A program made the translations under genes and the position numbers. Shown here piece by piece: positions 1 to 43,953 of a stretch of 64,000 bases of DNA (position 1 is its first letter; each line of letters begins with the position of its first letter). Below the pieces are notes generated by a model, which saw only the letters and a list, made by a program, of their open reading frames with translations, was not told the origin of the DNA and did not search any database. The stretch lies in contig OZ076409.1 of NCBI GenBank assembly GCA_964187785.1, positions 48,982,001 to 49,046,000 of the forward strand, in the 5' to 3' direction. This DNA is from Amphiscolops sp. MND2022. Lineage: Eukaryota.

Positions 1-1746
1 GAGATGTTTTAACGATGATTAGTATAAATAAGCAAGTCGTAAGGAAAGTAGTAGGAAATTAGCAAGGTGAATAGGAAAGTTCATCCAATTTTCATCGCAG
101 TTGCAGATGTACATGAGAAAGTAGTTAGCTTGCGATTTTGCAGTTTTCAGTGATGAAATAGAGATGTATTTTCTGGTGAAATTCGACGTTGAGTATCCTA
201 CTGGATGGTAGCTAATCACAATTCGGTCTGAGTAATGTTTAATGGCGGTCCAATTTACAGCAGTTCACGTGTCTTTTCAGGCTGGTAAGACGCTAAATCT
301 CTTACCAGCCACCTCTTATTGGCTATTGCCAGTTGGTGCTAATTGGTAAGTCACGTGACCGGTGTTGTGAACTGCCGCAAGTTGGCTGAACCACATGGTA
401 CATCTACATATGCTAATTATGATTAATCATCACTTTACAATGTCGCAATTACCTGCACGCAGCATCATAGTTTCTATAGCAACCCAAATCATTCAAAAAT
501 GTACTAATTTCAAGTCAAACCAGAGTAAACTGTATCACAGGATGAGAAAACGATGTTTTCCAACTAATTCTAGCACCAAAATCAATACTTCAAAACTAAA
601 GATGGAAATGCGATGAATTTGTCAGAATATTTGCTGATTTTCAAGTCTAGTTTAGCTCTGGATGAAAATGCGATGAATGGTGGTCTTTTCGCTCGAAAAT
701 CAACACTATATAAACTGACGATGATAAAAGGATGAACTCTCCATAAAATTTGCCAATTTCCAGCACTGATTAAAATGACGATAAATTCAGGATGAATCCA
801 CTCAGAAAATGCTATTTCTAGCGCATGATCAGTTTTAGCGATGAGTTTAGGATGAACTCGTGAATTAAAACAGCAACTATCGAAGCAATTCAAACTAGCG
901 ATGAGTTTAGGATGAACTCATCCACTAAAATGGTAATTTCTCAACACAAGGTGAAATCATGATGAATTAATGATGGATTTGCTAAACAAATCAGATAACC
1001 AGCGCAATCACTCTTTTTTAGGATGGGTTAAGGATGTACTTTCTCATTTCTCTTCTATGTTAGTATGACGATGAATAAAGGATGTCTTACTGTCCTTAAG
1101 AAATGAGAAGCACTTTTGTGAGTTTCTACATGAAATATAACGATGAATTAGTGATGGAGTTTAACTAAAATGAGTCCCGTAAAATCCGCTGATGGATTTA
1201 TGATGAAAAGTAAAGTTTATTGTCCCATGCGTGGTTCATTCGCAATCTCGGAGATGGGATTGCGATGAACTTTGTTAACAGCACCAGTAAATCCGCTGAT
1301 GGATTTAAATGAAATCAAATCAGAATCATCACTAAATTAGACGATGAATTTGTGATGTATCTTTGATGAAATTTGTCACAACTACAAACTCTGAGGCGGG
1401 GAGCTAGTAGAAGTTATAACTTTCATCGTTTCTATATCTCGCGGTCCAGTCTGACCGGAAAACTTCTCTCCCTTGTCGTGACAAACCAATATTTAAGAAA
1501 AGTAGCACATCTAAGGCTAATGGCAAGATCATTTATGCCGACACCGGAACTAGAGCGCTCAGTATTAAGTAGATATATATAACTCACACTCAAAGGGGGA
1601 AGGGATTAAGGTACAAGTAACGTAGGGTTGCTCACAACCATGGCTCTTCTTATATGACTTCATATTGCCCATATCTAAGTACATAAGACATAATATTTAC
1701 ATTACAGATATTTAGTAGATTATATTTCCATCATGCTGGCATGACA
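1..1746 (-). repeat. 3' LTR of element A (partial, ~420 bp lies outside the window)
   Basis: Near-identical to 16937..18683; identity ends at ...CATGACA (1746), which is the TGTCATG start on the minus strand. Confidence 0.95.
541..1357 (+). repeat. Degenerate ~60-bp periodic array of GATG-N7-GATG in LTR A (same array in the 5' LTR)
   Basis: Motif starts at 541, 601, 661, 720, 840, 900, 961, 1022, 1070, 1142, 1191, 1253, 1343. Confidence 0.9.
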
Positions 1747-2921: not shown

Positions 2922-5900
2922 ATGTCAGAGATTCATTCAGTTCATTCATTACCTGAGACCGAGACCACAGAAAGTAAGTGCACTATATTTCCTTTTCTTC
3001 ACAAACGGGTTTGGGACAATCAATTACTTAGGACGCACACTTGCTTTAGCTGACTCAGTCCACTCTGTCGGCATCGTGTCGGAACTCACGACACTGCAAA
3101 CTGTGCCACCCCAAGAAGCTCCTGTTGTCCAGCCGGTAGCCGCTGAGCCGCAGATTGACCCTGAGTTGCAGGTCGGTCAACCTGTCAATGTCCCGTATCT
3201 GCCGCAGTGTAAGTACTATCCTTCCATTCTTCAGTTCAGTCTTCGAATCCCTCATATCTCATCCTTACTTCGTCCATTAGCTGACTCCTTTTCGTACGGT
3301 GTTTCAGACCACTACCCTTGGTATGCCTCTCTTGGCAGCATCACCTTCGGGTGGTATGACCGCCACATGCGGGACATGCTGCGGGACAGCATCCAGCAAT
3401 TCAGTGAGTTTGTCAATTTACTTTTCATTCCTCTAGGCGATCGTCCGAACACTCCGATGTGATTCCGATGTAAACATCTCATCTGCATGTAGTGTCCTTT
3501 GCGGTCGATTACCCATGTAATTCATTTTTAAGATGAATTTAGGATGTGTCATGAACATTCACAGCTCTTCATGACTGACTCGCTGTAAATCCCATTTTTG
3601 AAGATGAGTTTTGGATGAAATCTTCTCCGGTCTTCTTTCTTCGCGCGGCGTACGCGCTCTTTCTTCTCCAATCGTCGTCGTCCAATAATTGTTTTCTTCT
3701 TTCAGGCCCAACGCCTATCCATGCCCCGAGACCGCGTCCCATCACCTATTCTATCGGGATCGGGACCAGTGACTTCGATGATGGCAGCGTTGACGTCAGC
3801 ACACAAGGAGGGCCTCCCCAACTCAATTTCTCCTCGTTCCTCAATGAACTGTCGTTAACTGGAGCGAGTTCTCCTGTCAGGCAGGCGCCAGTGTCTGTTC
3901 TGTCCCCTGTCTTGAGACGGTCCTTAACTGTTGCCAGTCTTCCTTCTGCTCGCCTTACTGTTGATGCAGGAGTCAATGCCATCGTCACTCCTGTTGATGT
4001 GGCAGTCGATGCCGTCGTCGCTGCCTCTGATCAAGCAGTTCAGGCCGTCGTGGAAGTCAGTGAGTCTTCCACTTCTTATGATCCTCCTGCTGAAATTGCT
4101 CCAGTTGCCGAATTGTTAGAGACTGTTCTTTGCGAGTCACCAAGTGCCAATGTTCGTCGTTTTTCCTTCAGCTTTGAGTCATCCGTGGAGCCACCTGAAG
4201 ACTTCACTGTGGATGGATCGTTGGCTGATGAACCTTCCTCTGAGTTGGCTGTCCCGGCACTAGACTCTGCCCCTGAAGAGACGTCTCCGATTGGTCCCAG
4301 TCTCGTCGACTCTGACGACGAGTTGATTGCAACCAGGCTGCCAGGTTACCTAAGCAACTTTAAAACATGTGAAGTATCTGATCAGTACCTGCATTCATTC
4401 ATCTTCCTTTTTTCATTTTTGCTAGCAATTCAGATTTTTCGTCTTTTTCATCTATTTTCCATCGTTTTAGTTCTTTTCGCTGTTCAGTTTTGCATGTTAT
4501 GTTTTTTCATCATTTTTTCATCGTTAAAAGTTTTCAAACATGGCGTTTTTCTCTTTTGTCTTGCATTCTAGCTATTTTAGCCACTTTTCATCTCTTTTAC
4601 ATCCTTAAAATTTTCCTTTTCGTTTTAGCTATTTTTCAGTGTTTTCTTTTCAGTTTACATCCCTTTTTCATCGTTAAGTTGTTTTCGCTCTAAAATATCT
4701 CAATTTTGGTTCAAAGTCGTTCTATACATCTCTTTTTCATCGTTCGAGTTTTCGTCTTTAAAAGTTTCGATTTTCATTCTGGTGGTCTGCAAACACATCT
4801 CTTTTTCATCTTTTCGTTTTTTCTTCGTTTTTCGCTTATATTTCCCGATGAAAATATTATTTTACATCATTTTTTCATCACTCCGGGTGACTTTTGGAAG
4901 TTTGTCGTGGTATTTTCATTTTTCAGTTTTGAAAGGATGATTTTTGTAGATTTGTTTTCTTTTTATTTCAGGAAGGAAAGTTCTCAAGTCAGCGTGGTTC
5001 GACCATGCTTATTGTGGATTGGCGTTAGGTTTTCCAAAAGATCACCTGACGCGTGATTCGTACGCGCGGTGCCTACTTTGCAAGCAGGATGTAAAGATCG
5101 GTAGCCGCGGCATAACGACGTTTCTTGAGCACTGCCGCGGAATGAGGCATCATCGTCTGGATTGCTTGGTGCGATTGCGACGTGGGCTCGCACTGCGGAA
5201 ACGGGATGGGACGCTCATGTCCGAAGCTGAGTGCGATGTATGTACGACGACGTTAGCTGGCGAAGCAGTGCCGGTAGTTGAGTCATGTCCCAATGTGACC
5301 GTGATCGAGGCTCTACAGATTGAGGCGACTGGCAGATCGGTGTGGGGCGACATATGCGCATCGAGCGACAGTGCGCAGGTTGAAAGTGTGAAGCTGTTTG
5401 TGTGCCTTGTCGTGGATGCTATATATCGCGACTGTGACTTCTCGAGTGTGCGTCATCTCTGGGACCTGATGGTGTCTTCGAATTTCCAGCATGCTGTTTT
5501 GTTTGGTTCGGCGTGTCGAGAGGCTGATGTACTGGTTATTATATTTTCATGTGTTGTATGTCATATGATATGTTTCATGTTTTGCGTGCACTAGTAATCA
5601 ACAATTAGGGCGTTTTTTTCTTTTATTTTTTGTTATTCTGGGTTGGGGGTGTATCTGAAAATGAGCTAAATGTCTTTTAAATGATTCCGATTTTTATGTT
5701 TAGAGTGTGGTCCTTTTGGGGTTGTGGCCCTATGTCATGCGGCGAGTACTGAGTCTGTGGACTGAGACCGAGTTCACTAGTTTTGGTGTATCTATTGTGG
5801 CGGACAGGGTGGTGGGCACCGTGAGCGTGTGTACTGTGGAGGGACTCGCAAGTTATGTGGTTCTATCTTTCAATTACTCGCAAGAATGGGAACAGCGTGT

Positions 5901-7591
5901 GGTCTCCTGGATGGTCAACTTGCTCTGTTGTGCTGTGGGGCAGGTCTCTCCTATTGGTGTCAACTGCAGTTTGTTACCCAGGCTAGAGCGTGCGCTGTTG
6001 AGGGGCTCTGGACTAGGAGCTGTTTCACTCATTCCTCTGCGGATCAGCGACCTGAATAAAGTTCTTGTTGACGCGAGTGTGCGCGTTATGGGCGGTGTTG
6101 ATGTGCATACACTGCTTAATCATTTGCAGACAAGGCTGAAAGACTTCGTGCATGATGCCGTTCTACTATCTTGTCCGAAACTATTGCAGGTGAATATGTG
6201 TTCTATATCAGTGTTTCTAATTGCATGTTTGTTTGTTGGAGATCGTGTGCTTTTAAGTTGGGCGAGTGGTGGATCTTGGTAAATTGTTATTATCCAGCTC
6301 GATGTTTTTCTAGGCTGTGCTGGAGGGAGAGGTCACTCTGTGGGATGTTCCCGACGTACTGACAGAGCTCCATACGAATTGGTTGGACATCGTTGTGCTA
6401 CTGAGGGTACCTGGTAATTCTGGTGTGCCTGACACTTTGGACATTGTGCTGTGTGGTGACCCTAGTGTGTCTCTTCGTCTTCATGCTTTGTCGCTGGTGT
6501 TTCGTGCTCGTATGTACAGTTTAATGTTTAGTAATCTATTTTGTAGGGGGGGCTGTTATATACACTTATCTATGAAGTTTGGTTTGATTGTCGTCGTTTG
6601 TAGCGGGGGGGGGCTATTGTATACACTTCTCAATGAAATTTTGTTTGATTTTAGTCGTTACTACCTTTCGTTGGAGCTTCAGTGGCTGCGAACTGAGGAC
6701 TGCACATTGGTCGTATGAAAGTTCATGCTTCGTGCACACTATTTTGTCCTATGTCGTTGAAGAGTCAGATCTCCCTGCCGTGTTGGATGTACGAGCTTGT
6801 TTGTGCATTGACCTCAATGGGCTAGTGGTTTCGGATGCCAAGTTAAATTCTCTTCGTGAGGAGTTTGCTGCCCATCTGGACTGTTTCGAGCGCCCTGACG
6901 TGTTTGAAGGGAATGTCATTCTAGTGAAAGACTTTCTGTTGTTGGTCGTGGAGGAGTTCTTGAGTGTACGAGGAGTGAAAGAAGAGGTAACTTTCCATCT
7001 GAGCGTTTGCTGTCCGGCCCTGCTATTGTCTTGTGATCCTGATGTTTTGTCAGCGGAAGTTGCACAGTTTACTGAGTTGCTAATGGAGCTGAGACGAGTC
7101 ACCGCTGTGGAGAAAAGGCGGATGGATAGAAGTTTCCCTGTATTCTTGGATAACTATCGGCGGATTGCTACTGGAGTGACTTCAGATAGTGCGAGTTCTG
7201 CTGTCGAAATTCTCCGAGCGTGTGATGGTGTGTCTGCGCAGCGGTTGTTCAGGTTTCTAATGTGCTTGAACGAGAGTCCACTTTTGCCGCTGAGAACACC
7301 TTGTGGTAGTGTGGGCCATTTACGGAGTGACATCACGACCAGCGTGTGTTCGAGTGTTTTCGAGTTTTCTCAAGGCTCATCGTATACGGAGATACGAGAG
7401 TGTCAGTGGACCTTTCTTGGAGGAAATCGCTGAATCATTTGGACGATTTACGACGCTGTCTGATGTAACGAACGGACGACATGCTATGGGACGACGTCGG
7501 TGTGGTGGCTGCCGAGGATTATCGCCAATCCCTGTACGAACTGCTGGGATTTACTGAAGAAGGAGAACGTGCTCCGAGTCCGGAGATTTGA
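2922..7591 (+). CDS. Antisense spliced accessory gene of element A: ~1050-aa zinc-finger protein, putative hAT-transposase derivative
   Basis: Predicted exons 2922-2973, 3050-3208, 3281-3403, 3706-4344, 4972-5534, 5704-6189, 6314-6509, 6655-7591, all with GT..AG introns and matching phases. Acidic S/P-rich N-terminus, then CLLC-x16-H-x5-H. As sequenced the frame stops at 7433; two +1 shifts (~7362, ~7471) are needed to reach the homologous C-terminus at 7591. Confidence 0.82.
4449..4879 (-). repeat. ~69-bp periodic array of CATC-N7-CATC in intron 4 of the antisense gene
   Basis: Motif starts at 4449, 4508, 4589, 4658, 4727, 4796, 4865. Confidence 0.9.
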
Positions 7592-10227: not shown

Positions 10228-13200
10228 CTAATTCGTTACGTTTACTTTGTTGGTCTTTCTCAGAGAGTTTCTGGCTGTTGTAATCTCATGAATAAGGAAG
10301 TCAAGATATTTTTTCGGTGTAGGGTTTTCGCGTAACCTGTACCTACTTTGATTGTTTCTAGAAGGTCTAGAACTCATCCTTTCCTCATCTTCATTTTGCG
10401 TGTTTGTCTGTTGTGACTGATTTTCGTGTTGTTCGTCTCTCAGAGGTACTCTTATCCTACTTTCATCGCGGGGGGGCGGTAGAATAATTTCCTCCTGCGT
10501 CCCAAATCTAACTGTAGGTGGTCTAAAGTTGTTGTGGTCAGTTTCTACTTGCTGGTAATCTGTTCTCGTGGTTATTTCTGGTGGAATTACTTGTGGACTG
10601 TGTTGTTCTTGTACCTGCGGAATTATTTCTTCTGAAGGCTCTTCTTCGACTAAGTCTTGATCTAGATTGTCATTCTCATTCTGATCTACTTCGTCGGTCG
10701 TCGGAATATTCGAGTCGAAAATGTCCGTGTCTTCAACCCTTTCAGTGTCTGGGTAGAGATGTTTGGACACGTTGATGTCATCAATCGGAAATTCCGGTTT
10801 GAACAATCTCAGTCGCATGCGATGTACGCACTGAGTTTGGTGTGTGCCTACTTTGCGGATGATGTAGTTGCTATCGGATAGCACTTTCATCACCTTGTAC
10901 GGTCCTTTCCAGTGGAAAGTTTTAAACTCTTCTTTGCTTCTCTGAGAGTCGTACTTAGGATCTAGTAGGAACACAAATTCATTCACCTTCAGTGGCTGTG
11001 CTCGTGCTTTTCTATCATAGTACGTTTTGTACTTATGATAGGCGGAAATGATGTTATCTAGATTGTCTCTGAAGATGAAGTTCATTTTGTCTAGAATTTC
11101 GTTCACGTCCTTGCACTTTGTTTCAGCCGGTTTGTTTGCGTTTCGGAATTGCAGATCTAGTGGGTTGTATGGTGTTCTTCCGTGGAAAATTTCAGTTGGT
11201 GAACATCTCAGTGAATCATGATGCGTTGTGTTATGGGCCATGATTGCTATGTCGACATAGCGGTCCCATTGTGGTCTGTCTGCGTTTACACTAATTTTAA
11301 GGATCTTTTTCAGTTTCGCGTGCGTTCTCTCCACCATGCCTATTGTCTGCGCGTGCTTTATCGTGGCATGGGAGATGTGAATATCAGCCGCTTTCGCGAT
11401 TTCAGACAGAAGTTCAGCCGTAAACGCCGTGCCCTTGTCCGTCAGAATGTGCTTGGGCACATACGCGTGTTTCGTGAAGATCGACAGTAATCCTCTGACT
11501 ACGGAATGTGTATCAGGTCTCTTCAGCGGAACGGCGAACAGGTAGCGTGAAAAAACGTCAACAGCCGTCAGAATGTGTGTAAAACCGTTCGACGCCGGGA
11601 GTGGACCAACGATGTCTATTTCCAACAGGTCTTCTGGTCCGTCGCACGGGTCGTAGATTTTTTGTAACGGTGGACGTAGTTGCGTTTCTTTTACACTTTT
11701 AGACTTCATGCAGTTTTCACATCCGTCAGAGACTTTTTGAACTTTACAGGCTAAGTTAGGAGAGTAATATCTTTTACGAAGTTCATACAACATTTTCTTT
11801 AAACCAGGGTGTCCTTGTACCGGGCTGTTATGTAGAGTCCTAATTATTTTCAAAATACAGTCTTCAGGAACGACTAACTGCTTGTGAGACTCTAGTCCCG
11901 TGTGATCAAAAAACTGTCTGTACAAGACACCGTTTACAACTTGTAGGCGTTTTCGATTTTTGTACAACTTTTGAAAAAACTGATCTTGCATATTAACTGG
12001 GTGTTGCAAAATTTCAGTACCTTCTAAAAATCTAATCATTTTTTGGATAACCCAGTTATTTTTCTGGACCTGAATTAGATCGATCCCCTCGGCGGGGCTA
12101 ACCTGACTCATTACCGGGTGTGATAATGATACTTTACGGATGAATTGCGAGAGTTGAATCGGCTCGTCCACGTCTGTGAGGCGGTACGTCAGATGGTTGT
12201 CAGTCGCGAAGTCATCTGAGGCCGCTGTTCTCTCACAGTTGGTGAACTTCATCCCTTTCCCATCGTCATGAGCCACGTCAGTGCCAGTTGCCAATTTCAT
12301 CTCTTTGACATCCTTCTGGCGTTTGCATCTGAGTGGTTCGCTCGCGGGAAAGTAATCAGGCTCGTCTTCCTCCTGTTTTGGTGTACGGGAGGCGATGTCG
12401 ATCTCGATCCTGTGAATTGGAATAGTATCAGTCAATTTTAAATGTACACGGTCTTCAGGTCTAATCTCAAGCCGAGATAAGTAATCCGCTGCGGGATTTT
12501 CAACTCCTGTAACATGTGCTAATAGAAAATTGAACTGAAGGGTTTGATCGCAAAAATTCCAAAGTCAAGGCGGGATATGCTTCGCCTGGAAAAATCTAGT
12601 CAAGGCCTTATTGTCAGTCATAACAATGATGGGTTTTTTCGCACCCCACAAAATGTGGCCAAATTCATCGAAGGCAAAGTGCATAGCTAAAAACTCTTTG
12701 GCATACATTGTTAGAGACATCTGGCCGCCCTGAAATTTTTTAGAGCCAAATGCAACAGGGGCGTATGTGTGTTTGACTGACGGGTCAGCATAATCCTCAA
12801 TTAACAAAACATAGCCGGCAGCGTGTTCGCTGGCGTCACACATGATTACCAATTGTTTATCAGGTAATGGCAATTTCAGAGACACTTTTGTTGGTTTTAA
12901 CAAACTTTCATTGATTTCAAAAATAGCGTCTTTATGTTGTTGATTCAGTTTGAAAGGGACGTCCTTCTTGATCAATTCCTGTAAACAACAAGTTTTATCA
13001 GCTAGTCGGGGAATATAAGACCTGTAAAAGTTTACAAAACCAAGATAACGTTGCAACGCTTTCACTGAATTGGGGGGTTTCAACTTGGTTAGATAGTCAG
13101 TTACTCGTTTCTCAATGGGAGCAATACCGGTGCTAGAAATGGTTTTTCCCAAGTACTCAATTTGTTTTAGTCCAAATTCACATTTACTCATGCTAAGTTT

Positions 13201-15321
13201 GAGACCAGCTTTGTTCAACTGCTGAAAAACAAGTTCAAGGTTATTAATCAGTTCGTCAGGGGTGTGTGCTGCAATTCCAATGTCATCAACATATTGAGCA
13301 CATCGGTCCGCTTTGACCAAGGGGTCCAAATACTCACGGACTACACTTGTGAATGCTGACAAAGAACGGTTAAGACCTTGGGCTAGGCGTAAAAAGGCAA
13401 AAGTTCTAGAACCAAAATTAAATGATAACAGTTGGACAGACTGCTCATCGGCCATTGGAATGCAATGGTAGGCCTGGGAACAATCAAGTTTACAGAAATA
13501 CTTTTTCCCGGCCATGTGTTGGGCAGCGTCAGCAATTGTTGTTACGGGATGGTTGTGTTCACCGTAATCGTTTTTGATCAAGTGGTTTAATCTTCTCAAG
13601 TCAACTAAAATCCTCAATTTACCATTTGGTTTACGTTGGGCAAATATCGGAGATGAGTATTTGCTATGAGGCAAAGTAGTTATGATCCCGTACTCTTGCA
13701 TTAAAGCTAACTCCACGAGCAAATCGTCCTTCAAATTTGTCGGAGTCGGGAGACTTTGTGAATAAACAGGTTCTTCATGTTGAGGTGTTAACTTAACTTT
13801 AAAATCAGTGTTCATGCCAATATCAAAACGGTGTCTAGCAAAAATGGAGTTGTACTTTACCAGCAACTCCTCTACCTGTAACCGTTGAGACGGAGTAAGA
13901 AGCGAGTCGTCCCAGTTGAAGTTCTTCAGGAAGTTCATCCGTTGTTCATCGGATTGGGACGGGTCAAGCTTCTCGAGCTCTCGTAGTGCCAGAATCTCAT
14001 CATAGATTCGTCGCTCAATTGCGTTGAGTTTGTCTGGCTCACTGCACGTCTCGGGAGTTGGGTACCACTTAGTTGACTTCATTTCAGGGTTCACGAACAG
14101 TTGGTTGATCACTGCTTCCGCCTCATCTGGGTACTTGGTGATCAGGTTCAAGTGTTCGACTGGCATGGGTGTGATGTTTGCCGCTTGATGTGGTGTCGGT
14201 ATGCGAAAGTGTGCCAGAGTGGTGTTGGCATCAAGTGTGAACGTGTGGTTGTTCGGGTTGGTGACCTGGATTGTCGTCTTGCCCTCGTCTAGGTCAACCA
14301 AAGCTGGGGAAACAAGCAAACACGTCTTTCGCATGAATCCAGGTGAGCCCTCAACTGTACCAGTTGTGAGTGAGATGTCCGCGTCGCTGTGGACCTGTAT
14401 CATCTCTTGATGGAGAGGAGGGATCACTGTTCTGGTACTGGAACACAAATCAATTAAACCAGTTTTGAATCTGTTGTTCTTTTGCTGTCTAACTTGCATG
14501 GACATCATGTGATTAGGGAAGTGGACAAGGTGGTTTTTTATGTCTAAATTGACTGAGTACTTTTCAAAGAATGACATTCCAATTAAAATTGTGCCCATTG
14601 TTGGAAGGATTAGGAACGTTTCTTTAAAGACTTTTCCAGCAACGTAAAATCTAAGTAAGACTTGCTTACGTACTGGGACTAAGTTCCCGTTTGCTATTTG
14701 AATTTTGAAATTCGGAGGGGGGAGTTCTTGAAGGATGGCTTCTGGATGGGCCGTTGTTATTTTTCGCAATTCTGCTTCAGACATTGCACTTTGAATTGCG
14801 CCTGTATCTAAAAGTGCGCTGTTTTCATATTTGTCAAACTGAAGAGGGACGTAAAGCATTTTATCTTTCTTGTTTAAGTGTAAAGTGGGACTGAGAACGT
14901 GAATTTCTGTTTTAGTTGCATGTTTTTTAGCTTCTGAAACGTTAATACTACTCTGTTTTGCATGTTTTTTAATACTAAGCCGTTGGTCGATAGTTGAGTG
15001 TGAAGTTGAGTCGTCGTCTAGATGGTTGGTTTCCATCTCTTTGGAATCTTCCACCTGCCTCATGGTGTCTGGTTGCCAGTTCATCGTTTGTTCATCGTTG
15101 ATTTCAGCGAGTGGAGAAAAGCGGCTGCCGTTGAGTTGACGTGCATTTCCCATCGCTTTTTCATCGTTGGAAAGTCTTCGCTGATAGACGTCGTCAGCTT
15201 TTGGTCGTTTGTCCAGTGAAGGCTGCCATTTCTTCATTGGACGGTTGTGAGTCTGTTGTTGAGTCGTAAGTCGTTTGTCGCGCGTGTCGTTGGTAGCGGG
15301 CGGAAATCGTGGCGGAATCAA
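10228..15321 (-). pseudogene. pol: Pol of element A (protease, RT, RNase H, integrase) with one in-frame stop
   Basis: LLDTGA protease, LDCSQAY and YVDD RT motifs, CDAS RNase H, HHCC + D,D35E + GPY integrase. ORFs 12565..15321 and 10228..12435 share a frame and are split by a single TGA at 12565-12567 (KHIPP*LWNFCD). Confidence 0.93.
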
Positions 15322-16826
15322 AAACCCTGATTTATGTCTTCATCAGAGTAGCTTTCTTGGTCTTCTTCCTCGGCAACTGCTTGCATAGGATTCATCGGCT
15401 TTTGCTGTCGTTTTAAATCTTGTCGTCTAGCCTTGTTGTCGTCCTGTGAGTTCGTTGTGTATGGAATCTTTCCATATGCAGAGCTGCTTTCCTTGGGAAT
15501 GCGTCGTCTGCAGTCTCTTGCAGAGTGGCCGGTGTATCCACAAATCTGACAGACCAACTTCGGATTGTATTTCGGTTTGTCTGGGTCTGCTGCTTTCTTC
15601 ATCGGGATTGCATCTTCTTTCTTAATGCCGTTTGCTTCGTCACGTTGTCGGGCGCGACATTCCGTTTTGCGGTGACCTGTCTTTCCGCAGTAGAGGCATT
15701 GTCCCTCAAATCGTTTTCTTTCCGTGGGTTGCGTTGTCGTCGTTGTTGTTGTGGGCTTCGTCGTTGTAATCGTTGCTGGGGCTGAGGAGGTGACCGCGTT
15801 AAATGGTTGGATTGCCGTAGGTGGCGCGACGTACTGCTGGTACTGGTACTTTCTCATCAAGTATGTCTTGATTTCCTCTGGGGAGCTCTCTTCTTTGTTT
15901 GCCATGGTGAGCTCTTGTTGAATCTCGACTGGTAGTTTTCCAAACAAGAACATTTTGATTACTTTGTCGGCCTCATTGCCGAAGGCTTGTTTGGCAGTCT
16001 TCTTGAGATTTTTGAGGAAATCTCCGAATGTTTCTGTTGTGGGATCATAACGTGCTTGGTCCCACTTGTAACGGGCCACTTCCTTGAGATCCTCTTTTGC
16101 AAATTCTTTTCTGAAGAGGTCGAGTACGTCCTTTAGTGTTGTCATTGGCGTTATCTGGATGGATTGCCAGTATTCTATTGCGTCATCTCTCAAAAGGCTT
16201 TGAAAGAAGTGTAGTTTGTTCTCCTCGGTGATTTTGTTGGCAAGCGGGCTGAGGTGGTTGAGGAGAAGGTGTTCAAATTCGACGAATTTGTCTTTTTGGC
16301 CTCTGAAATTTGGCACGTGTGTCTGCAGAAGCTTCGTGTTGGTGGTGGTGTTTTTGATCCGTTGGGGGATCGTCTCGATTGCATTGAGTAGTCGTTCCTC
16401 ATTGCTTCGGGGGGTTGATTCTCCCTCTTCGTCTGAGTCGTCTTCTTGGTATCTTCTGAAGTTGGTGAAGCTGGTTGTCGGGCGGGTGGAGCGGGTTTCT
16501 GTAACTCCTGTCACCATGTCGAGCCCTACCGTGTGGGCCGGCTTTGAAGGACCTTTCGAAGTTGATGGCCGACTTTCACTCTCTGTCTTATTTATAACGG
16601 CCATCATTAAGTCCTTCAGTTGACTAAACTCATTTTGCAAGTCGTTTATTTTCCTTTCGTAACTTTCTCTTATTTCAGACAACTGAGAAGAGATGTCTGA
16701 AGTTTCGTTGCTATCAGAGTCATGGGCAGACGTCTGGGCCATGTCTGGATCAGTTGGAATAGATGTTTCAGACGAGGAACTAATAATTTTACCACTTCTG
16801 AGCTCAGTACCTTGTTCTGGATTCAT
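15318..16826 (-). CDS. gag: Gag of element A (502 aa)
   Basis: Retrotransposon gag-like core; two CCHC knuckles CLYCGKTGHRKTEC and CQICGYTGHSARDC; ends at slippery G GGT TTT. Confidence 0.93.
   Translation of the reverse strand: MNPEQGTELRSGKIISSSSETSIPTDPDMAQTSAHDSDSNETSDISSQLSEIRESYERKINDLQNEFSQLKDLMMAVINKTESESRPSTSKGPSKPAHTVGLDMVTGVTETRSTRPTTSFTNFRRYQEDDSDEEGESTPRSNEERLLNAIETIPQRIKNTTTNTKLLQTHVPNFRGQKDKFVEFEHLLLNHLSPLANKITEENKLHFFQSLLRDDAIEYWQSIQITPMTTLKDVLDLFRKEFAKEDLKEVARYKWDQARYDPTTETFGDFLKNLKKTAKQAFGNEADKVIKMFLFGKLPVEIQQELTMANKEESSPEEIKTYLMRKYQYQQYVAPPTAIQPFNAVTSSAPATITTTKPTTTTTTTQPTERKRFEGQCLYCGKTGHRKTECRARQRDEANGIKKEDAIPMKKAADPDKPKYNPKLVCQICGYTGHSARDCRRRIPKESSSAYGKIPYTTNSQDDNKARRQDLKRQQKPMNPMQAVAEEEDQESYSDEDINQGF
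15321..15327 (-). other. -1 ribosomal frameshift heptamer G GGU UUU (gag-pol, element A)
   Basis: XXXYYYZ heptamer in the gag frame just before the TGA; pol is open in the -1 frame from here. Confidence 0.75.
16505..16516 (-). other. Primer-binding site of element A (TGGTGACAGGAG)
   Basis: TGG immediately after the LTR-terminal ACA; the same 12-mer abuts the LTR in elements B and C; one mismatch from a tRNA-Leu-type PBS (TGGTGTCAGGAG). Confidence 0.85.
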
Positions 16827-18683
16827 ATAGACGAGGGAAAAGGATTATGAGTGAAGACTGGATTATCTGAGATGTTATTGCGATGTATTTTTGCTGTTCT
16901 ATTCGATTGTAATCTCTAATTCACTAAGTTTGAACAGAGATGTTTTAACGATGATTAGTATAAATAAGCAAGTCGTAAGGAAAGTAGTAGGAAATTAGCA
17001 AGGTGAATAGGAAAGTTCATCCAATTTTCATCGCAGTTGCAGATGTACCTGAGAAAGTAGTTAGCTTGCGATTTTGCAGTTTTCAGTGATGAAATAGAGA
17101 TGTATTTTCTGGGGAAATTCGACGTTGAGTATCCTACTGGATGGTAGCTAATCACAATTCGGTCTGAGTAATGTTTAATGGCGGTCCAATTTACAGCAGT
17201 TCACGTGTCTTTTCAGGCTGGTAAGACGCTAAATCTCTTACCAGCCACCTCTTATTGGCTATTGCCAGTTGGTGCTAATTGGTAAGTCACGTGACCGGTG
17301 TTGTGAACTGCCGCAAGTTGGCTGAACCACATGGTACATCTACATATGCTAATTATGATTAATCATCACTTTACAATGTCGCAATTACCTGCACGCAGCA
17401 TCATAGTTTCTATAGCAACCCAAATCATTCAAAAATGTACTAATTTCAAGTCAAACCAGAGTAAACTGTATCACAGGATGAGAAAACGATGTTTTCCAAC
17501 TAATTCTAGCACCAAAATCAATACTTCAAAACTAAAGATGGAAATGCGATGAATTTGTCAGAATATATGCTGATTTTCAAGTCTAGTTTAGCTCTGGATG
17601 AAAATGCGATGAATGGTGGTCTTTTCGCTCGAAAATCAACACTATATAAACTGACGATGATAAAAGGATGAACTCTCCATAAAATTTGCCAATTTCCAGC
17701 ACTGATTAAAATGACGATAAATTCAGGATGAATCCACTCAGAAAATGCTATTTCTAGCGCATGATCAGTTTTAGCGATGAGTTTAGGATGAACTCGTGAA
17801 TTAAAACAGCAACTATCGAAGCAATTCAAACTAGCGATGAGTTTAGAATGAACTCATCCACTAAAATGGTAATTTCTCAACACAAGGTGAAATCATGATG
17901 AATTAATGATGGATTTGCTAAACAAATCAGATAACCAGCGCAATCACTCTTTTTTAGGATGGGTTAAGGATGTACTTTCTCATTTCTCTTCTATGTTAGT
18001 ATGACGATGAATAAAGGATGTCTTACTGTCCTTAAGAAATGAGAAGCACTTTTGTGAGTTTCTACATGAAATATAACGATGAATTAGTGATGGAGTTTAA
18101 CTAAAATGAGTCCCGTAAAATCCGCTGATGGATTTATGATGAAAAGTAAAGTTTATTGTCCCATGCGTGGTTCATTCGCAATCTCGGAGATGGGATTGCG
18201 ATGAACTTTGTTAACAGCACCAGTAAATCCGCTGATGGATTTAAATGAAATCAAATCAGAATCATCACTAAATTAGACGATGAATTTGTGATGTATCTTT
18301 GATGAAATTTGTCACAACTACAAACTCTGAGGCGGGGAGCTAGTAGAAGTTATAACTTTCATCGTTTCTATATCTCGCGGTCCAGTCTGACCGGAAAACT
18401 TCTCTCCCTTGTCGTGACAAACCAATATTTAAGAAAAGTAGCATATCTAAGGCTAATGGCAAGATCATTTATGCGGACACCGGAACTAGAGCGCTCAGTA
18501 TTAAGTAGATATATATAACTCACACTCAAAGGGGGGAAGGGATTAAGGTACAAGTAACGTAGGGTTGCTCACAACCATGGCTCTTATTATATGACTTCAT
18601 ATTGCCCATATCTAAGTACATAAGACATAATATTTACATTACAGATATTTAGTAGATTATATTTCCATCATGCTGGCATGACA
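16517..18683 (-). repeat. 5' LTR of element A (2167 bp)
   Basis: TGTC...GACA inverted termini; inner edge fixed by the adjacent PBS, outer edge by loss of identity with the left copy. Confidence 0.92.
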
Positions 18684-19818: not shown

Positions 19819-21309
19819 TGTGATAATCCTCACCTAGGCTCTCTGCGTCAGACTCTTCGTCTGAGTGTATAGTTACATCTACATCGGACTCACTTCGAAA
19901 CAAAAGCTTTGCGGGATGTTTTAAGTCTCTCATTTTTGAAGCCTTGGGAGGAAAATCCTCGTTTTCAGAATCTGGATTCTCGATATTAGATGCGCGAACT
20001 CCTATAGACTCATCTATTCTAGATCCCGATTGCTGATTTTCTTGTATTTCATTTATGTCTGATCTTGGGTTTGTCGCTGTTGATGAGCTTTTTTAGTTTT
20101 TATTTCCCTTAGAATTGCTTCTAATTTGTTATCCATTTCTTCTCGCATCTTTTCAATTCTGTCATTGCTTTTTTGTTCCATTATTTGGGTCCAAACTTGT
20201 ATCTCATTGCTAATTTGGCTAGGTTCAACCAAGCTGTTCTCAGGGTTATTTTCGCCTAAATTACTTTGAATAACTGTATCATTATTAGTTAAAGTCACAT
20301 TACCTGATATTGGTGTCTCTGCCTGAGTTCTCTCCATTTCCCTTTCTGGGGATGGAGTTTCTAGCCTTCTAGATCGTCTATTTCTTTTGTTTTCCATCCT
20401 CTCTCAATTGAAAAATGAATTGCAGTTATTGGGGAAGAATTTGAATTGATCCTTTTATTTGGCAAAACCAAATTGGAAAGAGAAAATGATAGTAAAGATG
20501 AAAGTTTACAGAAGAGAATTGTAGATTTTGAAGCGACTGCATTTTAGTAGAATTGGAAAAGTTGTGTCTCACCAAATTATCCTAGCTGTCTATAACAATC
20601 ATGACATCCCTTTTTACGGGCATCACCCTCTGGGAAACACATAAATAGAATTACATCACAATAACATCAGTCTATTTATAGTACAAAGGCCCTGGAGGAA
20701 TGACAATCAAATACGAAATGATAATGTCTAAGAAACCCTAGAAAAAGTATGGAATTACTTAAGAATGGTATTTGCATGACTAATCAACATTAAGATTCAC
20801 TACATCATCAATTTGGAGAGCAACACTGCTAAAAACGCATGTTGACTAGTATACATTATGCATCGAAACGCATAATACCGCATATAAGCACTTATGCGGA
20901 AATGACGCATTTTGACGTATAAGCACTTTCACTCGAAACGTATGTTGACGCATGAACGTACTATCTTGAAATGTATGTTACCGCACAATGATCGAGACAT
21001 ATTATTTCCAAAACAGATTGTGAATCACATATTACATAAATCTCAACTTCATGACTCATCAACTTGATTAACGAACATGAAAAACTAAATCTCAATACAA
21101 TCTAAGATGTATTAAGTCATCTAAAAGAACAAAATCAACAGAACTAACAACTCTACCCGAAATAACCTATTTACATGACATCAATAAAACAGATGAAAAA
21201 CAAACATAACATGTCATAAACTCAGTTGTGAAACTTCAAGTTACTTTCAGTCCTCATTCACCTTTTCAGCGCTGCACTCCGGCTCCCATGCAGGTACTTG
21301 GCTGCAACA
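19819..21309 (-). repeat. 3' LTR of element B
   Basis: Copy of 34076..35567; includes a frameshifted duplicate of the gag 5' end (ORF 20053..20397). Confidence 0.95.
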
Positions 21310-22669
21310 GTCCCGCATTTTTAAAGGTGAAAAGGGCTGCTTCAAAACCATCTATGAAGGCGCGGGAACGTACATTTCGATCACGTACTGTCTCGGCTTT
21401 GTAGGCTGTTGCAAGAAGGTTTTCGCCTAATATCTCAAGGGCTATCTGATCATAAGTTTTACCGCACCAATCGCAGAACCCTGCAATATTAGGCATGACT
21501 GTTGGTGATAATCGGTAAACATTTCTTTCTTCCGCTGGTAGAAATAATATATTTGTACTGTGTGTCGCCTGTACTATGAAGGCTTGTTGTATAAATGGAG
21601 GCACTGGTGGGTCGTTATGAACCGCCACAAAGTTAGGTATGACAGATGGAATTTGTATCATCAGTGGTACTGGGTTTGTTAGTTGATTTGGGTTTGTGAG
21701 GTGTGAGTTAGCAGCTGCACCAGGAGGCCTGTTATGTAGATAATCGTTCACATTATTGTGATCAGCTGTTTGAACTTCCGAGATATTGTCTCCCAGGTCG
21801 GTAAAGTTACTTATATCAGCACTAAAGCCTGGTGGGTAGTTAGGTCGTGGTCTTCGTGGTAATCCTCTGCCTCTGCCCCGTTCTCTCGGGGTAGGAAGAA
21901 TCGCCGCTGATGGCCTGCCGTAGCTGTTTAGTGGGGGTTGTTGAACCATTTCCTGGTCATCCGGAGATTCAGGTGATTCTTCAAATTCCGAACTCACGAA
22001 TGAAGATGGTGTCATTGAATGATTGCTCTGATGTTCATCAATTAGGTCAAGCAATTGTCTTTCTATTTGTGATCCGGCAGTATCTATTATTTCTGTGTCT
22101 AATTGCGACGCCGTTGACTGGGGGAAAAGAGTCATGGCGGGTGCCCCGGCGAATGCAGTCATCGCGTTTGATCCTGGAGCGCCCACTCGGAACCTTTCCT
22201 CAATTGCATTCACATTCCCGGGTTCAACAGTGAACTCATCTCCACTCTCACTAGAGATATCTATTACAGAGGGCGATGATCCAAAGGTGTCCATCAGATC
22301 GTCCAGTCTGAATTGTAGTCTGTCCATTCTCACTTCGATGTCGGGTTTGTGATGAAAGTAACTTATGTCTAGGATGGTAGTTCTATTGAGAATTATTCAG
22401 TGAAGTTTTATGTGAACAACTGGTTTTGACTCGGTTATAGACCATATGGTGATTAGTTTATGATTTCCTGGTGAAAAATAAGGAAAACCCGCGGAAAAAA
22501 TGAGTGTCATGTCAACAATATTCCACGATCCCCTTATAAGGGTTTCCTTTGCTATGAAGCAATGGGTTCCGCCATCATCAAGGTGTAAACAAGTCCTTTT
22601 AAGGTGATTCTTCAGGGTTTTCCCGCTAACAGCACCTTCTTTATTCTCTTCACGGCATTTCGTTGTCAT
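21266..22669 (-). pseudogene. Sense ORF3 of element B (467 codons, one internal TGA at 22397-22399)
   Basis: ORFs 22397..22669 and 21266..22333 are in one frame with an open linker (IILNRTTILDISYFHHKPDIE); ends 44 nt inside the 3' LTR; contains VIDISSESGDE and FCDWCG. Confidence 0.7.
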
Positions 22670-23122
22670 TTTAAATGATAAGTAAACAAATCTATTATGA
22701 CTTCAAGAAAAATTCAACGAATGACTCAGGAACTTGTCAATGAAAATTCTCAATCAATTTTACATGTAACTAAATTTCATGAGTAAAAACAATGGAAATA
22801 CAAAATGGTATAAAAGGAACGTTTATTAAAGTTTTCACCATTTTTAATGTGTTATCCTCTTCATAGTTTTGTTTAAACACAGTTCCGCATTTAAAAAGGT
22901 ATTAGGGTCTGATCATGAAACGTATATTTAAAACAGATGTGTTCCCTTTGAATGAAATGTGACGTCAAAAAGGTTTCATCAAAATCAGTTCAGTTTAATC
23001 ATCACATAGTGACGTAACTTTTGTGTATTAACGCATAATAGTATGCTATAATACGTTGTTCGTGCTTTTAACATCATCTGTCAATACTGCATCTATCTCC
23101 TGCTGCATATGTAGCGAGAAAA

Positions 23123-23245
23123 CGTAGGTTGCCGCATGCTCGTACTCACTCGATCCGTATGTTGACGAGTATGCGTCTTCACTTGATCCGTATGTTGACG
23201 AGTATGCGTCTTCACTCGATCTGCATGTTGCCGCATATCCGTCTT
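23123..23245 (+). repeat. 33-nt tandem repeat between ORF3 and the antisense gene of B
   Basis: Units like TCGATCCGTATGTTGACGAGTATGCGTCTTCAC with period 33. Confidence 0.85.
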
Positions 23246-23723
23246 CGCTTGATATGCAAATTATCGTATATTTGTCATAACGCTGCATGTAATTCATTGT
23301 GTATTTGCTTTCCAAAATCTCTCTCGCTTTCACTGTGTAATTACCATTGTTTGCGCATATGTCACTCAGATTATCTCACGTTAATTAATCATACCAAACA
23401 CTCTGGCAGTAGTGAATGGCATTTAATTGACCAATCAGCGGTCAGTACAAACTATACCGCTTTCCAAAACCAGATTTCATTTTGCTCTTTTGCCTTTAAT
23501 TGTTACGCCACGCCTTTCGTTTTAATTGAAAACGTTGAAGTTCTGTCCACTGTTAATTCTAAAAGTTGCTGTCTATTTAGTTTCAGTTTTCATTGTTTAG
23601 TAATCTCTGTATCCCTTAATTCAACTCCTCTCAGCAAATTGAAGTGTACTTCTTGTGTTGTTATCATCATTAAAATTGTTTTCCTCCCCTGTCGATCATC
23701 AATCAAATTATCCCTTCTTGCAA

Positions 23724-26700
23724 TTGGATTCATTCGTTTTGGACTCTCCCAAACGCCGGAAAACAAGGAAGGATCAGCCCTCTCGTCGGGAACGTGCTTC
23801 TTGGTGCTACAAGAGTCCGTCGAGTACTACTCCTGGTTAGTTCAACTCAATTTGTTTCAGATTTTCAATTTTGAATTAAGGTTCGGTGAATTTTGAATGA
23901 TAGTTAGTTGGCCAGACTAATATCAGAGTTGATCAGATTTTAATCTTGATCAGATTTGAGGAATTTTTTGAACGCTTCCGTTCTTAGTTTCGAACGACTT
24001 CCGTTTTCATTTCCTGTTTCCGTATCCAAAAACTAGTGATTATCAAACGGGTTCCGTCCTTTTGACCCATTTATTTTCTAAAACGGATCATTTGTTTTAG
24101 TCGAACTTGGATCGACTCAAACGTCTCCTGGTCGCTCACCGACGAAAATTTATCATCCTCTTCAAGTTGTTTCCCCTGACGACCAGCAACAGACTGACTG
24201 TCCTGAGACACCAGATCTTGCTCAGTTACAGATTGATGAGACAAAGAAATCCCCTGTCATTGAAGTACGCGAAATTACTGCACAAGGGACAGAAGTCACC
24301 TTGCCTGCGTTGAATCAACCTCCTTTCTCTGCTAGTTGTTCGGTACGTCAAATCGTTAATTCTGAAGCGACTGATATGGATCTCACTCCTACTCTTTTTA
24401 ATCAAGACGCTGTTACTGAGGAGATTGTCCCATCTTCTTCTCAGATCCCCTCTCCTCAATTCTCCCAGTTCCTAGCTTATTCTCGGAACCAGACGCTAGA
24501 TCCACCCTCGCCTCGAGTCGTAGGCTTAGATGCTCCTGATCAAAGGCAGATGTGTACTCCACTTAGTGAGAATCTAGAGAACTCCAACGGTGATACCCAT
24601 GCCAATACTGAACCTTGTGGACTCAGTGTCACACGACAAGAAGTCATGTTATAATCCAACATGCTCGGTAGAATTCCCCGGAGTTTCCTAGCTGGTGGAG
24701 ATGAACAAGCAACGTCTCTTCCTTTCAGCATCGTCGAGAGTCCTTCTAATTTTGGTACGGCATTACCTTTAACCTCTAGCCAGGATGAAAGGAACGCACA
24801 ATCGTCGCCTGGAAATTCTACACAGGATCCTCAGAATCCTGATCAGTCAACTTTGCGGAAAAGGCAACGACCGAGATACTCTCTAAAAACTCATATGTTC
24901 CACAAACATCCGGTTTTAAAATTCTCTGCTACTGGACCAATTGATCCAGAGAAAACACCATACAAGTGGTGGTGCCGGGTTTGTCGGTCCGAACTGTCTC
25001 TAATGAGCAGGGGAACACTTGAGCTGATGGCACACTACCGTTGTGATAGTCATTACATCAAGGAACATCGTATGAGGATGGAAATCCCAGGAATGGCCCT
25101 ATTTGACAAGAATGAACGAGAGTTACAGGGTATGGCTTTGATTGAAGCTAAGAAGGTTGCAAAAAACACTTATCCCATTGCTCCTCAATTGGATAGCTTA
25201 CGACCTTACGGTGGGCATGTGGACAGTTTGACAGGAATTTACGACGGGATTTCTCGTCTATCCAGGAACAATCAGCTGCCTGTTCAAAACTTGGATCAAC
25301 ACCGCATTTATGTAAGTCTCGTGTTTAAGTTTTCAGTTCTGCATATTTCTCTTATAAGGGGTAATTGTTGTTCTGATTGAAGTGGGGTGGAAATAATTTG
25401 CTGAGTTTTAACAAGTTTGATTTTGAAATTTTTTCACACTAATCATTGTTTCTATCTGTTCACAGGGAGTCCTGATACACATGTTTCGGGAGCTTATTGA
25501 CTATTCTGTGACAGCTTGCGCTTCCTCCGGGATTTATTCACTATCTCTTGAAAAATTTCCCACCAATGATCTCGCCATCGTTTCCTTTTGGAGTGGTAAT
25601 GTCCTACACAGAATTTGTCTTGGAACAGGACCACGCGGGCTACTAATCCCAAAGAAAATCCTTGGTTTGGTGGCATCGTTCATTACTCTTTTTGAGAGCC
25701 CCCCGAACTGTGTGTGTCTTGTCGGAATGGGGGACAAACTTAACCAATGCCTCACTTCAACCCTACCAGGAACCAAGCGTCCTAATTTGGCTCACTCGTT
25801 TGGTCCGAACGATTTCGAGAAATGTCTTGCCGGCCCCACAGTAAACATCATCGAGCGCCACGACTTCCGGTCCATACTTGATTTCCTCTTGATGAAGCTG
25901 GGGACAGCACTTGACCGAGACTGGCTACAGTCCCTCCCTCTTCTTCATAAGGTTTTCATCTTCTTCTATTTCATTGTAATTATACATTCATAGATAATGA
26001 TTGCTTCGCTTTATCTTTTAGTGCGTCTTGAGTCTCCAGTATTCTCTCAGCGAAGCATCAGGACTTATTGAGTGTCTTTCCTCCAACTGGAACAAGATAC
26101 GTGATCATTTAGCCCAAGTCTCTAGACTACCGAAGTACCGCTTCCATATGCGAGAGGTTAATTTGAATATCATTTTTAGTGATATACAACTCATCTGCAT
26201 CGTTTCCATTGTTTTGAGTGTTGTTTTAGCCAAGCACCCTCGACGAATGCTTCAGGCTCGACACAGCATATCTTGCAAGATTGTTTATCATCCGGTGTGC
26301 TATTGATCACTGTTAGTATGTTGTTTTGCTGATTGATTTTTTTTACTCCATACATTTACGATTTTCTCAATGCGCACGAATTTTCCACCATATTTTGTCT
26401 AATTTGGGTCAGAAATGATCGTTTTTCAATAATACCAATTTTTAATCCGCCGTGCACTCCTGCTCTGATCATTGGAGAATACTATTTGACTGTTTCCATT
26501 AGCCGTGTTCTTTATTTTAGCTACGTGTAGCCTCCATGACTTTTATGCGAACAATCTCTCCTTTTCCGCATAGTGACGTATATGCGAGTTGTCTCGATCC
26601 GCATGATAACGTATATGCGTATCACCTCGATCCGCGCAATAACGCATGAACGGATTACCTCGATCCGCATAACAACGTATATGCGTTTTATCTCAAACTG

Positions 26701-27911
26701 CATTTTAACGTATTATTTCTCTTTGTCTAATACTAATGTGTGTTTGACCATTACGTCATCGTTGTTCAGAGTTGCAATAGCGTTGTGTTTCAGATGATTC
26801 AGCCTTTTCTGCCATTGAGACACAAGCTGGATATGGATTCAGACTGTTCAATCAGTACACTGTGTTTCTATATAGTCAACTGCAGAATATCCTTCCCGAT
26901 AGCTCTCTTGGGGCTATAACTGACTGGGATAGATACATATCACTTGATTTCACAGATCCTGCTTTGCCATTCAAGTCGCCTGATGAATTTATCCTGAACG
27001 AAGATTTCCACAAACTAGTGTTAGCTAGTAAGTTACCACGTCCCAGCAAGTTTGTAGAACAATCTATTTCCTTTTGCAAAGCCTTTTGCAAAGATTTACT
27101 GGATCATGAGCTGGTTCAATCTAACTTGGCACGTGGTATGGCTGCATTTGATTTAGCAGTAATGGTGGAGGGTCCAGAGACCAATTACGTCAGCGCTATT
27201 GAAAAATTGAGTACTCATTTCGTGTCGACCGGATGGTTATCCCCCAGCGAGAAAGTCAAGGTGGTGAGCCAGTACAGGGCTTTTGTCACTCTGTTGCGTG
27301 CTAGTCCTTTGCCTGAGGTCAATGATTTAGTCCAATTTCTTGCTACACACTACGAGATGCAAAACAGGCCTGAATTGTATCAGTTATTCCGTTACTCTTG
27401 TCTCTGTTTGCCAAGCAATGTCAGTTTGCCTACTTCATTTGAAGTACCCATTGCCCAGTTGGAGTCTGGCAATGAAGTGTTGCGTTCTTGTGTTACAAGT
27501 TTACAATTGTCCTACCAGGCAGTACCGAATGTTTCAAATTTGTACCGGGACCCACGTACCATCAATCGTCTGTTTCGACTTTTAGGGAGAGGACCAGAAC
27601 TGCTTACTGACAAAAAATTCTCAGTGTGGAATATCCTCAAAAGCAGTGGGCCCAAGCGGAATAACCTTCAGGGGAAATTTGAGGCTGCATATCGCAAAGC
27701 AGTGCTCAAATTGGATAAGCCAGTAGTGCCTTCTAACGCTTCAACCCCTACTATTAGTCGTTCCAATAGTGGTAGCAGATCTCCGGTTTCTGATCCTGCT
27801 TTGGGACGGGCTATAGTTCCTGTGTCTCGATGTGCTAACGACAATGAAGAAGAAGGAGGAAGTGCTCCCAAAGGGGCGAAAGTTAAAACTTCTCGAGGGA
27901 AGCGAAGTTAA
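23724..27911 (+). pseudogene. Antisense spliced accessory gene of element B (~1047 codons), homolog of the element A gene
   Basis: Predicted exons 23724-23835, 24101-25311, 25466-25951, 26022-26156, 26230-26311, 26794-27911 with GT..AG introns and consistent phases. CRVC-x16-H-x5-H finger; NLS-like PKRRKTRK in exon 1. In-frame TAA at 24652-24654 and TTG where the start ATG is expected (23724). Confidence 0.82.
26560..26715 (+). repeat. 33-nt tandem repeat in the last intron of the B antisense gene
   Basis: Units like TCGATCCGCATGATAACGTATATGCGTATCACC; CGYAT-N5-CGYAT at 26567, 26600, 26666. Confidence 0.85.
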
Positions 27912-28089
27912 TTTAGACATCTTTGTTTTGCTACAAACTATTTATATATTATAGTTGTTTGTTGTTTTGTTGATTGATCAGTCCAGTTGCATTTCTATTA
28001 TTTATCTGATGTCGTTGGCAAATTTCGCACATTATTAAAGTACACTCAACGTGCGAGAGGAAAAGAAAAAAGATTGTTTGTTCTTGTTT

Positions 28090-43452: not shown

Positions 43453-43953
43453 CGTGTCAAAGTGAAAAATGTCAAACGTCAACCTAATTACCGACTGCAA
43501 TTACAATGTGAAGCGTTTTTGTTAAATAAGAAAGCCAATACGATGTATCGTTTCCTTGGTGTAAAGTAGCCAAACTTTGATCACTTTCCCCTTTTAAAAT
43601 GAATGGTATTTCTAAGTACTCGAAAAGTGGATTCTAGTCAAACATTGACTAATTTACGTGGTAGATAGCTCTAAGTGCTCGAAAAGTGAATTCTAGTCAA
43701 ACATTGACTAATTTACGCTTTATACACGTTACGGAATTGAGCCAATTGTAGGTTGAAATTCTTGACTGGTTTCCACTTTTCTCTAATTACGCTCAATGAC
43801 CAAAATCCGCAATTTCTGATTACACTGTGCATCAAAATTCACGATGAACACACTACTCTGTTTGACTAGAATACGGTTCGTTCTCGTTTTACGGAAAATA
43901 CACTTTACACTTGATGATAAAATCCACTTTTGCGGCATATGTAGCGTAATGAA
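43453..43953. mobile_element. Unclassified ~500-bp insertion splitting the first zinc knuckle of element C gag
   Basis: Gag reads ...CGIHGH before and KWAE.. after; the insert has an internal ~48-bp duplication; ends approximate. Confidence 0.55.

Follow-up and report, generated by a model that had tools for sequence, protein, structure and literature searches.

Two Ty3/Gypsy retrotransposons, here called A and B, lie in a 64,000-nucleotide stretch of the Amphiscolops sp. MND2022 genome (assembly GCA_964187785.1, contig OZ076409.1, positions 48,982,001 to 49,046,000; hereafter the window), with the gag-pol genes of both on the minus strand. Each also carries a gene on the opposite strand, and the locus raises the question of where this accessory gene came from and what it might do for its carrier. 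An earlier note on the window had singled out positions 4972..7433, inside element A, as a catalytically dead hAT transposase taken over by a retrotransposon. Overall, we find a real accessory gene that is under selection and is likely to be a disarmed hAT transposase. The fuller reading, that this antisense gene of a Ty3/Gypsy clade goes back to an ancient hAT capture, lacks the DDE triad and would encode a non-cutting DNA-binding helper, is one that we consider reasonably probable.

A gene with predicted introns, antisense to pol

In element A, the accessory gene lies between pol and the 3′ long terminal repeat (LTR), on the strand opposite to gag-pol. We modelled it on the plus strand as eight predicted exons that extend from an ATG at 2922 to position 7433. 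All eight have GT/AG ends and, spliced as predicted from the sequence, they form one open frame of 1004 amino acids. The stretch noted earlier corresponds to the last four exons; its exons are indeed bounded by GT/AG sites, but the gene begins upstream of it, and 7433 is not where the family's reading frame ends.

Predicted exons 1 (2922..2973), 2 (3032..3208), 3 (3281..3403) and 4 (3706..4344) precede the finger, and the first 330 amino acids of the predicted protein are of low complexity. Within this N-terminus, exon 2 is homologous yet variable among sibling copies, and exon 4 is rich in S, P, V, A, E and D and likely to be disordered. Exon 5 (4972..5534) encodes a CX2C..S.G..HX5H finger, followed by a helical region at the position of the hAT DNA-binding/dimerisation region; its ligands and splice sites are conserved, and its ratio of non-synonymous to synonymous substitution (dN/dS) is 0.12. 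Exon 6 (5704..6189; 162 codons, phase 0-0) encodes a putative RNase H-like part without conserved Asp residues, for which a crude heuristic sketch gives the pattern β-β-β-α-β-α-β. Exon 7 (6314..6509), whose splice sites are conserved, carries a TLW..NWxxI helix at the start of a putative helical insertion domain, and exon 8 (6655..7433, stop codon at 7431-7433) encodes a helical domain with an hATC-like segment and is homologous to the last exon in B.

The model of the last four exons is supported by sibling copies. At every junction end, no fewer than 19 of 21 A copies, which span 55-100% protein identity, have the GT or AG where the model predicts it. In the last exon, at about codon 237-241, the copy in the window departs from the sibling frame, and it terminates at 7433. 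Of the 30 closest loci, one is the copy studied here and another stops early; the remaining 28 stay open through 310 codons. In four intact A siblings the core of the protein, from the finger exon onward, comprises 724 amino acids.

Element B contains a homologue at 24853..27911 (plus strand), with a finger exon that ends at 25311 and further exons at 25466-25951, 26022-26156, 26230-26311 and 26794-27911. B thus has an extra exon of 82 nt, at 26230-26311. Together these exons splice to 760 amino acids without an internal stop; the N-terminal part, from about 24082, does contain a stop in this copy. The motifs on which the earlier note had relied are all in frame on the plus strand, namely the finger (4972-5534), TSFGVSI (5704-6189), NWLDI (6314-6509) and AQRLFRFLMCL (6655-7433) in A, and the finger, YSLSLEK, NWNKI and PELYQLFRYSCLCLP in B. 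Although the last exons of A and B are about 16% identical, the strand-rich exon has 486 nt and phase 0-0 in each of the two elements, and it is of about equal length in two further families, C and D. By profile, the last exons of A and B align with an HH probability of 76 (E 2.3e-5, 197 columns). Direct A-to-B profile comparison of the other two exons fell below significance; profiles derived from B do detect these two exons in further families.

Family distribution and purifying selection

Searches of the genome for the accessory gene yielded at least 147, at least 139 and at least 108 matches, lower bounds drawn from 900, 6696 and 7264 candidates respectively. From each list we fetched 20 loci, chosen by hand across the range of identities, so that all loci were selected via the accessory gene. 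The gene stands antisense beside integrase/pol at 57 of these 60 loci (20/20 A, 20/20 B and 17/20 C/D). It is thus present in at least four families, A, B, C and D, with hundreds of matches. Its exons are conserved across these families far beyond chance, the last exon at 13-21% identity between families. Integrase and accessory trees, both unrooted and compared without a topology test on the 48 loci that have both parts, separate A, B, C and D alike, which is consistent with a single early acquisition and subsequent inheritance together with pol.

Among protein representatives, 300 relatives reached E ≤ 0.001. The best 150 of them are all fragments or products of a single exon, none longer than 438 amino acids, and ten that we looked up had no informative name; true hATs could be among the remainder. 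Protein database searches returned no longer homologue, which is weak evidence by the search tool's own note, and scans of metagenome and viral contigs gave no match.

Purifying selection acts on the whole scaffold, on the finger and the remainder alike. In five exon sets, the median proportion of synonymous differences (pS) was 0.75-0.88, against 0.18-0.26 for non-synonymous ones (pN). On unsaturated pairs (18, 27 and 10 of 66 in A, and only 1/45 and 1/105 in B), dN/dS was 0.115-0.129, as compared with 0.87-1.23 for the same codons on the opposite strand. From this selection, and from the retention of the gene, we infer that it has been repurposed by its carriers.

In family A the accessory gene appears older than the pol beside it. 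Over 135 pairs, the median difference at four-fold sites was 0.12 for integrase versus 0.67 for the accessory last exon, and 73 of these pairs combined an integrase difference below 0.15 with an accessory difference above 0.5; the loci had been picked for accessory diversity, which favours such a picture. The corresponding contrast in family B is small (0.59 versus 0.72). Old accessory alleles on a young, shared pol suggest module swapping. Family A copies (L041-L060) are mosaic, with near-identical integrase and old accessory alleles, and their N-terminal exons assort apart from the finger exon, for example in L052 and L050.

A conserved finger but no conserved catalytic triad

We scored residue columns across 49-130 aligned rows, the catalytic columns of exon 6 being placed by analogy and the Glu column by structural register with the hAT transposase Hermes. 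A BED/C2H2-type finger is present, with its C, C, H and H kept in 51-52 of 53 rows. The acidic residues of the triad are not conserved. At the end of strand 1, Gln occupies the column in 13 of 14 B rows and Glu in 14 of 16 C/D rows, and none of the 30 B, C and D rows has Asp. The register of A is uncertain at this point, and an Asp just after TSFGVSI occurs in 8 of 14 aligned copies; the earlier statement that both elements lack this Asp therefore holds for B but not cleanly for A. The end of strand 4 is Gly in 41 of 49 rows and Asp in 6. The position seven residues past the LP proline is mostly occupied by Pro, Leu or Ala, and in 6 of 20 B rows the next residue is a Glu. The aligned rows contain no CxxH, and ERxFS shows no conservation in the alignments. 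An RW ahead of the NWxxI helix is not conserved either, as had been noted, although in A a Trp does precede this helix (TLW). One Asp in the exon 6 helix is conserved at 92%.

Inspection of the DDE positions, which the earlier note had proposed, hence reveals no conserved acidic triad, and this makes DDE catalysis by the predicted protein unlikely. In agreement with the claim that no transposon ends are visible, we found no pair of terminal inverted repeats (TIRs) with a 7-8/8 flanking duplication around the gene in A or B (3, 58, 0 and 4 candidate pairs).

Evidence for and against hAT descent

A hAT origin of the accessory gene is likely, not proven. It is suggested by several weak, mutually consistent signals, namely domain order and size, the finger, neighbours in the ESM Atlas and the rank of Hermes in a structure search, none of which exceeds the threshold of its tool. 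The finger, the strand-rich exon, the Trp helix and the C-terminal segment are arranged in hAT order, and intact hAT frames of the host span 570-700 amino acids, as compared with the 724-residue accessory core. Many such host frames (L233, L254-L260, L282-L288), 570-670 codons long, combine an HX5H finger with catalytic motifs that appear intact; L233 and L234 are frames that we take to be hAT-19-like.

For structural comparison, an AlphaFold model of the last exon of B was built from a 90-sequence alignment and reached a predicted local distance difference test score (pLDDT) of 88. A first fold, of the last exon of A from 17 sequences, reached 43 and was excluded from the structure search. 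Against 48,161 solved chains, the B model placed Hermes (8edg_A) at rank 1 (Z 5.5, root-mean-square deviation 3.3, 84 residues), with model residues 103-200 on Hermes 426-566. Model residue 200 is the Pro of CLCLP, and Hermes Pro565 lies seven residues ahead of the catalytic E572; the match thus spans the segment named in the earlier note and ends where the catalytic Glu would follow. Of 30 ESM Atlas neighbours of the last exon, 23 belong to a set whose leading cluster bears PF05699, a hAT C-terminal family, on 60% of its members.

A series of results weighs against hAT descent, in addition to the placement of the exon 6 catalytic columns described above. The Z of 5.5 is tied with that of the unrelated helical Fel d 1 (5.2) and is below the tool's meaningful range for helical folds. 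The ESM result is weak by the tool's calibration (score 0.90, recognition 2169, 128 shared features), and an ESM Atlas query with exon 6 returned no hAT cluster. Foldseek searches of PDB and BFVD with the B last-exon model gave nothing at E ≤ 0.001, and a VIA second look contained no hAT row. Pfam returned only a sub-threshold zf-BED match (E 0.21), no hAT match for exon 6, and no hAT family for the 17- and 90-member last-exon sets. Sequence-profile searches of PDB, including those with exon 6, produced no hAT match, and profile-profile and hidden Markov model tests against host hATs (21 Ac/Tip-type and 29 hAT-19-like frames) were not significant; the best comparison, limited to the finger, reached E 0.005 with a probability of 7. 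The resemblance claimed earlier is accordingly suggested by order, size, finger, ESM neighbours and Hermes rank, but not supported by the Foldseek, Pfam and profile tests. PF14291 had no match in the genome, nor in the controls. A short motif aimed at a donor hAT family matched a BEL/Pao pol instead and was discarded.

A second carrier: giant CACTA-like elements

Three C-type loci are without pol. Four copies of one sub-family (L151) are 98-99% alike over more than 25 kb and have no gag-pol. Their terminal 25-mer occurs 171 times in the genome; inverted pairs of it stand 35.3, 35.3, 37.6 and 51.4 kb apart around matches to the gene, and about 1-1.5 kb apart elsewhere. Four of five examined pairs are flanked by 2-bp duplications. 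A 654-amino-acid frame within these elements matches DUF1258, with Transposase_21 and DUF4218 below the cut-off. By these features the carrier is a giant CACTA-like element of 35-51 kb, and such CACTA-like elements, with their 2-bp duplications, are the only TIR-flanked carriers of the gene. The copy of the gene that they bear is 66-67% alike in DNA to the pol-linked loci L153 and L169, which makes transfer from an LTR element likely. CACTA-like carriers (G000:C2:29298732-29334034 and similar; L302-L304, L313) also contain weak SET-like frames, and one further frame, without a Pfam match, is presumably BEN-like, judged by eye. Derivatives of about 1-1.5 kb share the TIR of these carriers.

Alternative explanations

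Could the gene be a genuine, selected finger gene whose body does not derive from a hAT transposase, its likeness reflecting a common helical arrangement and the reading of motifs? This would account for the negative outcome of all sequence-profile and Foldseek tests and for the tie of the Hermes match with Fel d 1. We nevertheless consider it unlikely, because Hermes was a target named beforehand and came first of all chains in the expected register, because a separate method (ESM) points the same exon to the same family, and because the finger, the strand-rich exon, the W-helix and the C-terminal segment stand at hAT order and size. A hAT-derived protein could also serve not in transcriptional regulation but in integration targeting or nuclear tethering, or as a dominant-negative poison of host hATs. 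Selection on the entire scaffold and the many host hAT families with long open frames fit such a function, as does the divergence contrast between integrase and accessory gene in family A, which resembles the swapped, diverse alleles of conflict genes. It is made rather improbable by the CACTA-like sub-family, in which there is no gag-pol and hence no integrase partner, and by the extreme divergence from host hATs, which renders mixed dimers less likely.

The notion of a hAT DNA transposon nested in the LTR element, or of its decaying remnant, is largely refuted, and we give it hardly any credence. Nested insertions are common and the last exon of this copy is frame-broken, but place, strand and exon pattern are constant in four deep families, dN/dS is about 0.12, no DDE triad is conserved, and the search around the gene in A and B gave no TIRs with a matching 7-8/8 duplication.

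A possible role, and comparison with known systems

Under the preferred reading of an ancient hAT capture by an LTR element, the zinc finger was kept and the transposase scaffold was likely kept with it. Being antisense, the introns would escape removal when the genomic RNA is spliced and could therefore survive reverse transcription; the accessory mRNA may be driven from a promoter within or close to the 3′ LTR. The protein would be non-cutting and probably dimeric, with its finger binding repeats in the LTR or the internal region of the element. The low-complexity N-terminus might then promote or protect transcription of the element, in an anti-silencing or other regulatory role. Given a hAT origin, and arguing by analogy, we put the chances of such a transcriptional or anti-silencing role at slightly short of even; tethering of the integration complex and poisoning of host hAT transposases would be the next options. 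The 33-nt tandem repeats in B-family introns are candidate binding sites. Such repeats occur in element B in the LTR (20904-20969), in the upstream region (23121-23285) and in the last intron (26565-26729), and in sibling introns too. Presence of the gene in a DNA transposon that lacks pol fits a role independent of integrase. More tentatively, a hAT transposase may have been captured once, lost its catalytic residues, become a swappable third gene on a homogenised pol and then passed to giant CACTA-like transposons as an anti-silencing factor, a sequence of events that we regard as possible rather than probable.

VANC proteins of the Arabidopsis VANDAL transposons, which are Mutator-like DNA transposons, are element-encoded anti-silencing accessory proteins. 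Similarly, the accessory protein would bind tandem repeats of its own element and diversify between families; the likeness is an analogy of role, and no sequence relationship is claimed.

With hAT transposases (Hermes, PDB 8edg/2bw3/4d1q; hAT-19/CGGBP-type), the accessory protein shares an N-terminal finger, a similar size and a similar order of parts; the modelled helices of the last exon in B superpose on Hermes 426-566, and its HX5H spacing is that of the host frames L233/L234. Unlike them, it has no conserved D/D/E, CxxH, RW or ERxFS and no TIRs of its own, and its gene has several introns, a long low-complexity N-terminus and an LTR element as carrier. hAT fingers bind the subterminal repeats of their elements and have many times turned into sequence-specific binders (PMC8097297). 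Host-domesticated hAT genes such as ZBED and CGGBP1 likewise reuse the hAT finger as a sequence-specific DNA binder (PMC8097297). These are host genes, mostly truncated or intron-bearing single loci, whereas the accessory gene probably retains the scaffold at full length and is carried, in hundreds of copies, by another transposon.

The closest parallels in position are the antisense open reading frames (ORFs) of plant LTR elements, Grande gene23, RIRE2 and Retand TRP28 (PMC7264820, PMC11963269). These also lie antisense between pol and the 3′ LTR, are retained in most copies, have tandem repeats nearby and have been proposed to be nuclear or DNA-binding regulators. According to PMC7264820, they have no similarity to other transposable elements, and the origin and role of antisense LTR accessory ORFs are described as open. 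By contrast, the gene described here has a traceable candidate origin, a DNA transposase, together with about 1000 amino acids, seven predicted introns and a non-plant eukaryote host, and it offers a testable activity, the predicted binding of its finger to DNA of the element itself. Extra ORFs are also captured by LTR elements of rotifers, and a term search of the paper describing them gave no mention of a transposase or hAT (PMC5408684). Literature listings and abstracts, which are limited evidence of absence, contained no accessory gene of an LTR element with a hAT origin. Hosts are known to have domesticated transposases; for domestication by a retrotransposon, with introns kept antisense and a later move to a giant DNA transposon, the same listings and abstracts held no precedent, again limited evidence of absence.

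Organization of elements A and B and other features of the window

Element A is a complete Ty3/Gypsy element, with an identical 5-bp target duplication at both flanks. Its 3′ LTR (1..1746, minus strand) starts 420 bases to the left of the window; it is 99.5% identical to 16937-18683, and the 420 outside bases match 16517-16936. The 5′ LTR spans 16517..18683 (minus strand), the LTR pair being 99.5% alike. Between them, on the minus strand, are pol (10228..15339; protease, reverse transcriptase, RNase H and integrase), with a single in-frame stop at 12565-12567, and a gag frame with a CCHC knuckle (15318..16844) that starts within the 5′ LTR. An 11-mer resembling a primer-binding site (PBS) adjoins the 5′ LTR at 16506-16516, and the same 11-mer is present in element B. 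Assignment to Ty3/Gypsy is based on the LTRs, the PBS-like 11-mer, gag, the order protease, reverse transcriptase, RNase H and integrase, and a target duplication within the 4-6 bp of such elements.

Element B (19819..35567, minus strand) has LTRs at 19819-21309 and 34076-35567 that are 99.6% alike, and its flanks agree at 4/5 bases. In both elements the 5′ LTR already contains the first 110-195 codons of the gag frame (15318-16844 and 32967-34661, minus strand), and this frame includes the PBS-like 11-mer, at an MVTG motif. Element B also contains an extra frame of 376 codons at 21266-22396 (minus strand), sense to gag-pol and extending into the 3′ LTR. Pfam gave no match for it; homologues are present at 19 of 20 B loci and, via the C-terminal part, at 6 of 20 C/D loci.

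Elsewhere in the window, three elements that resemble miniature inverted-repeat transposable elements, with long inverted repeats, occupy 47721-48972, 53797-54486 and 56876-57641, two of them composed of 15-16-nt subrepeats. At 41506-46870 there is an older pair of LTR-like direct repeats, about 87% alike, with a degenerate stretch resembling reverse transcriptase near 44700-44980.

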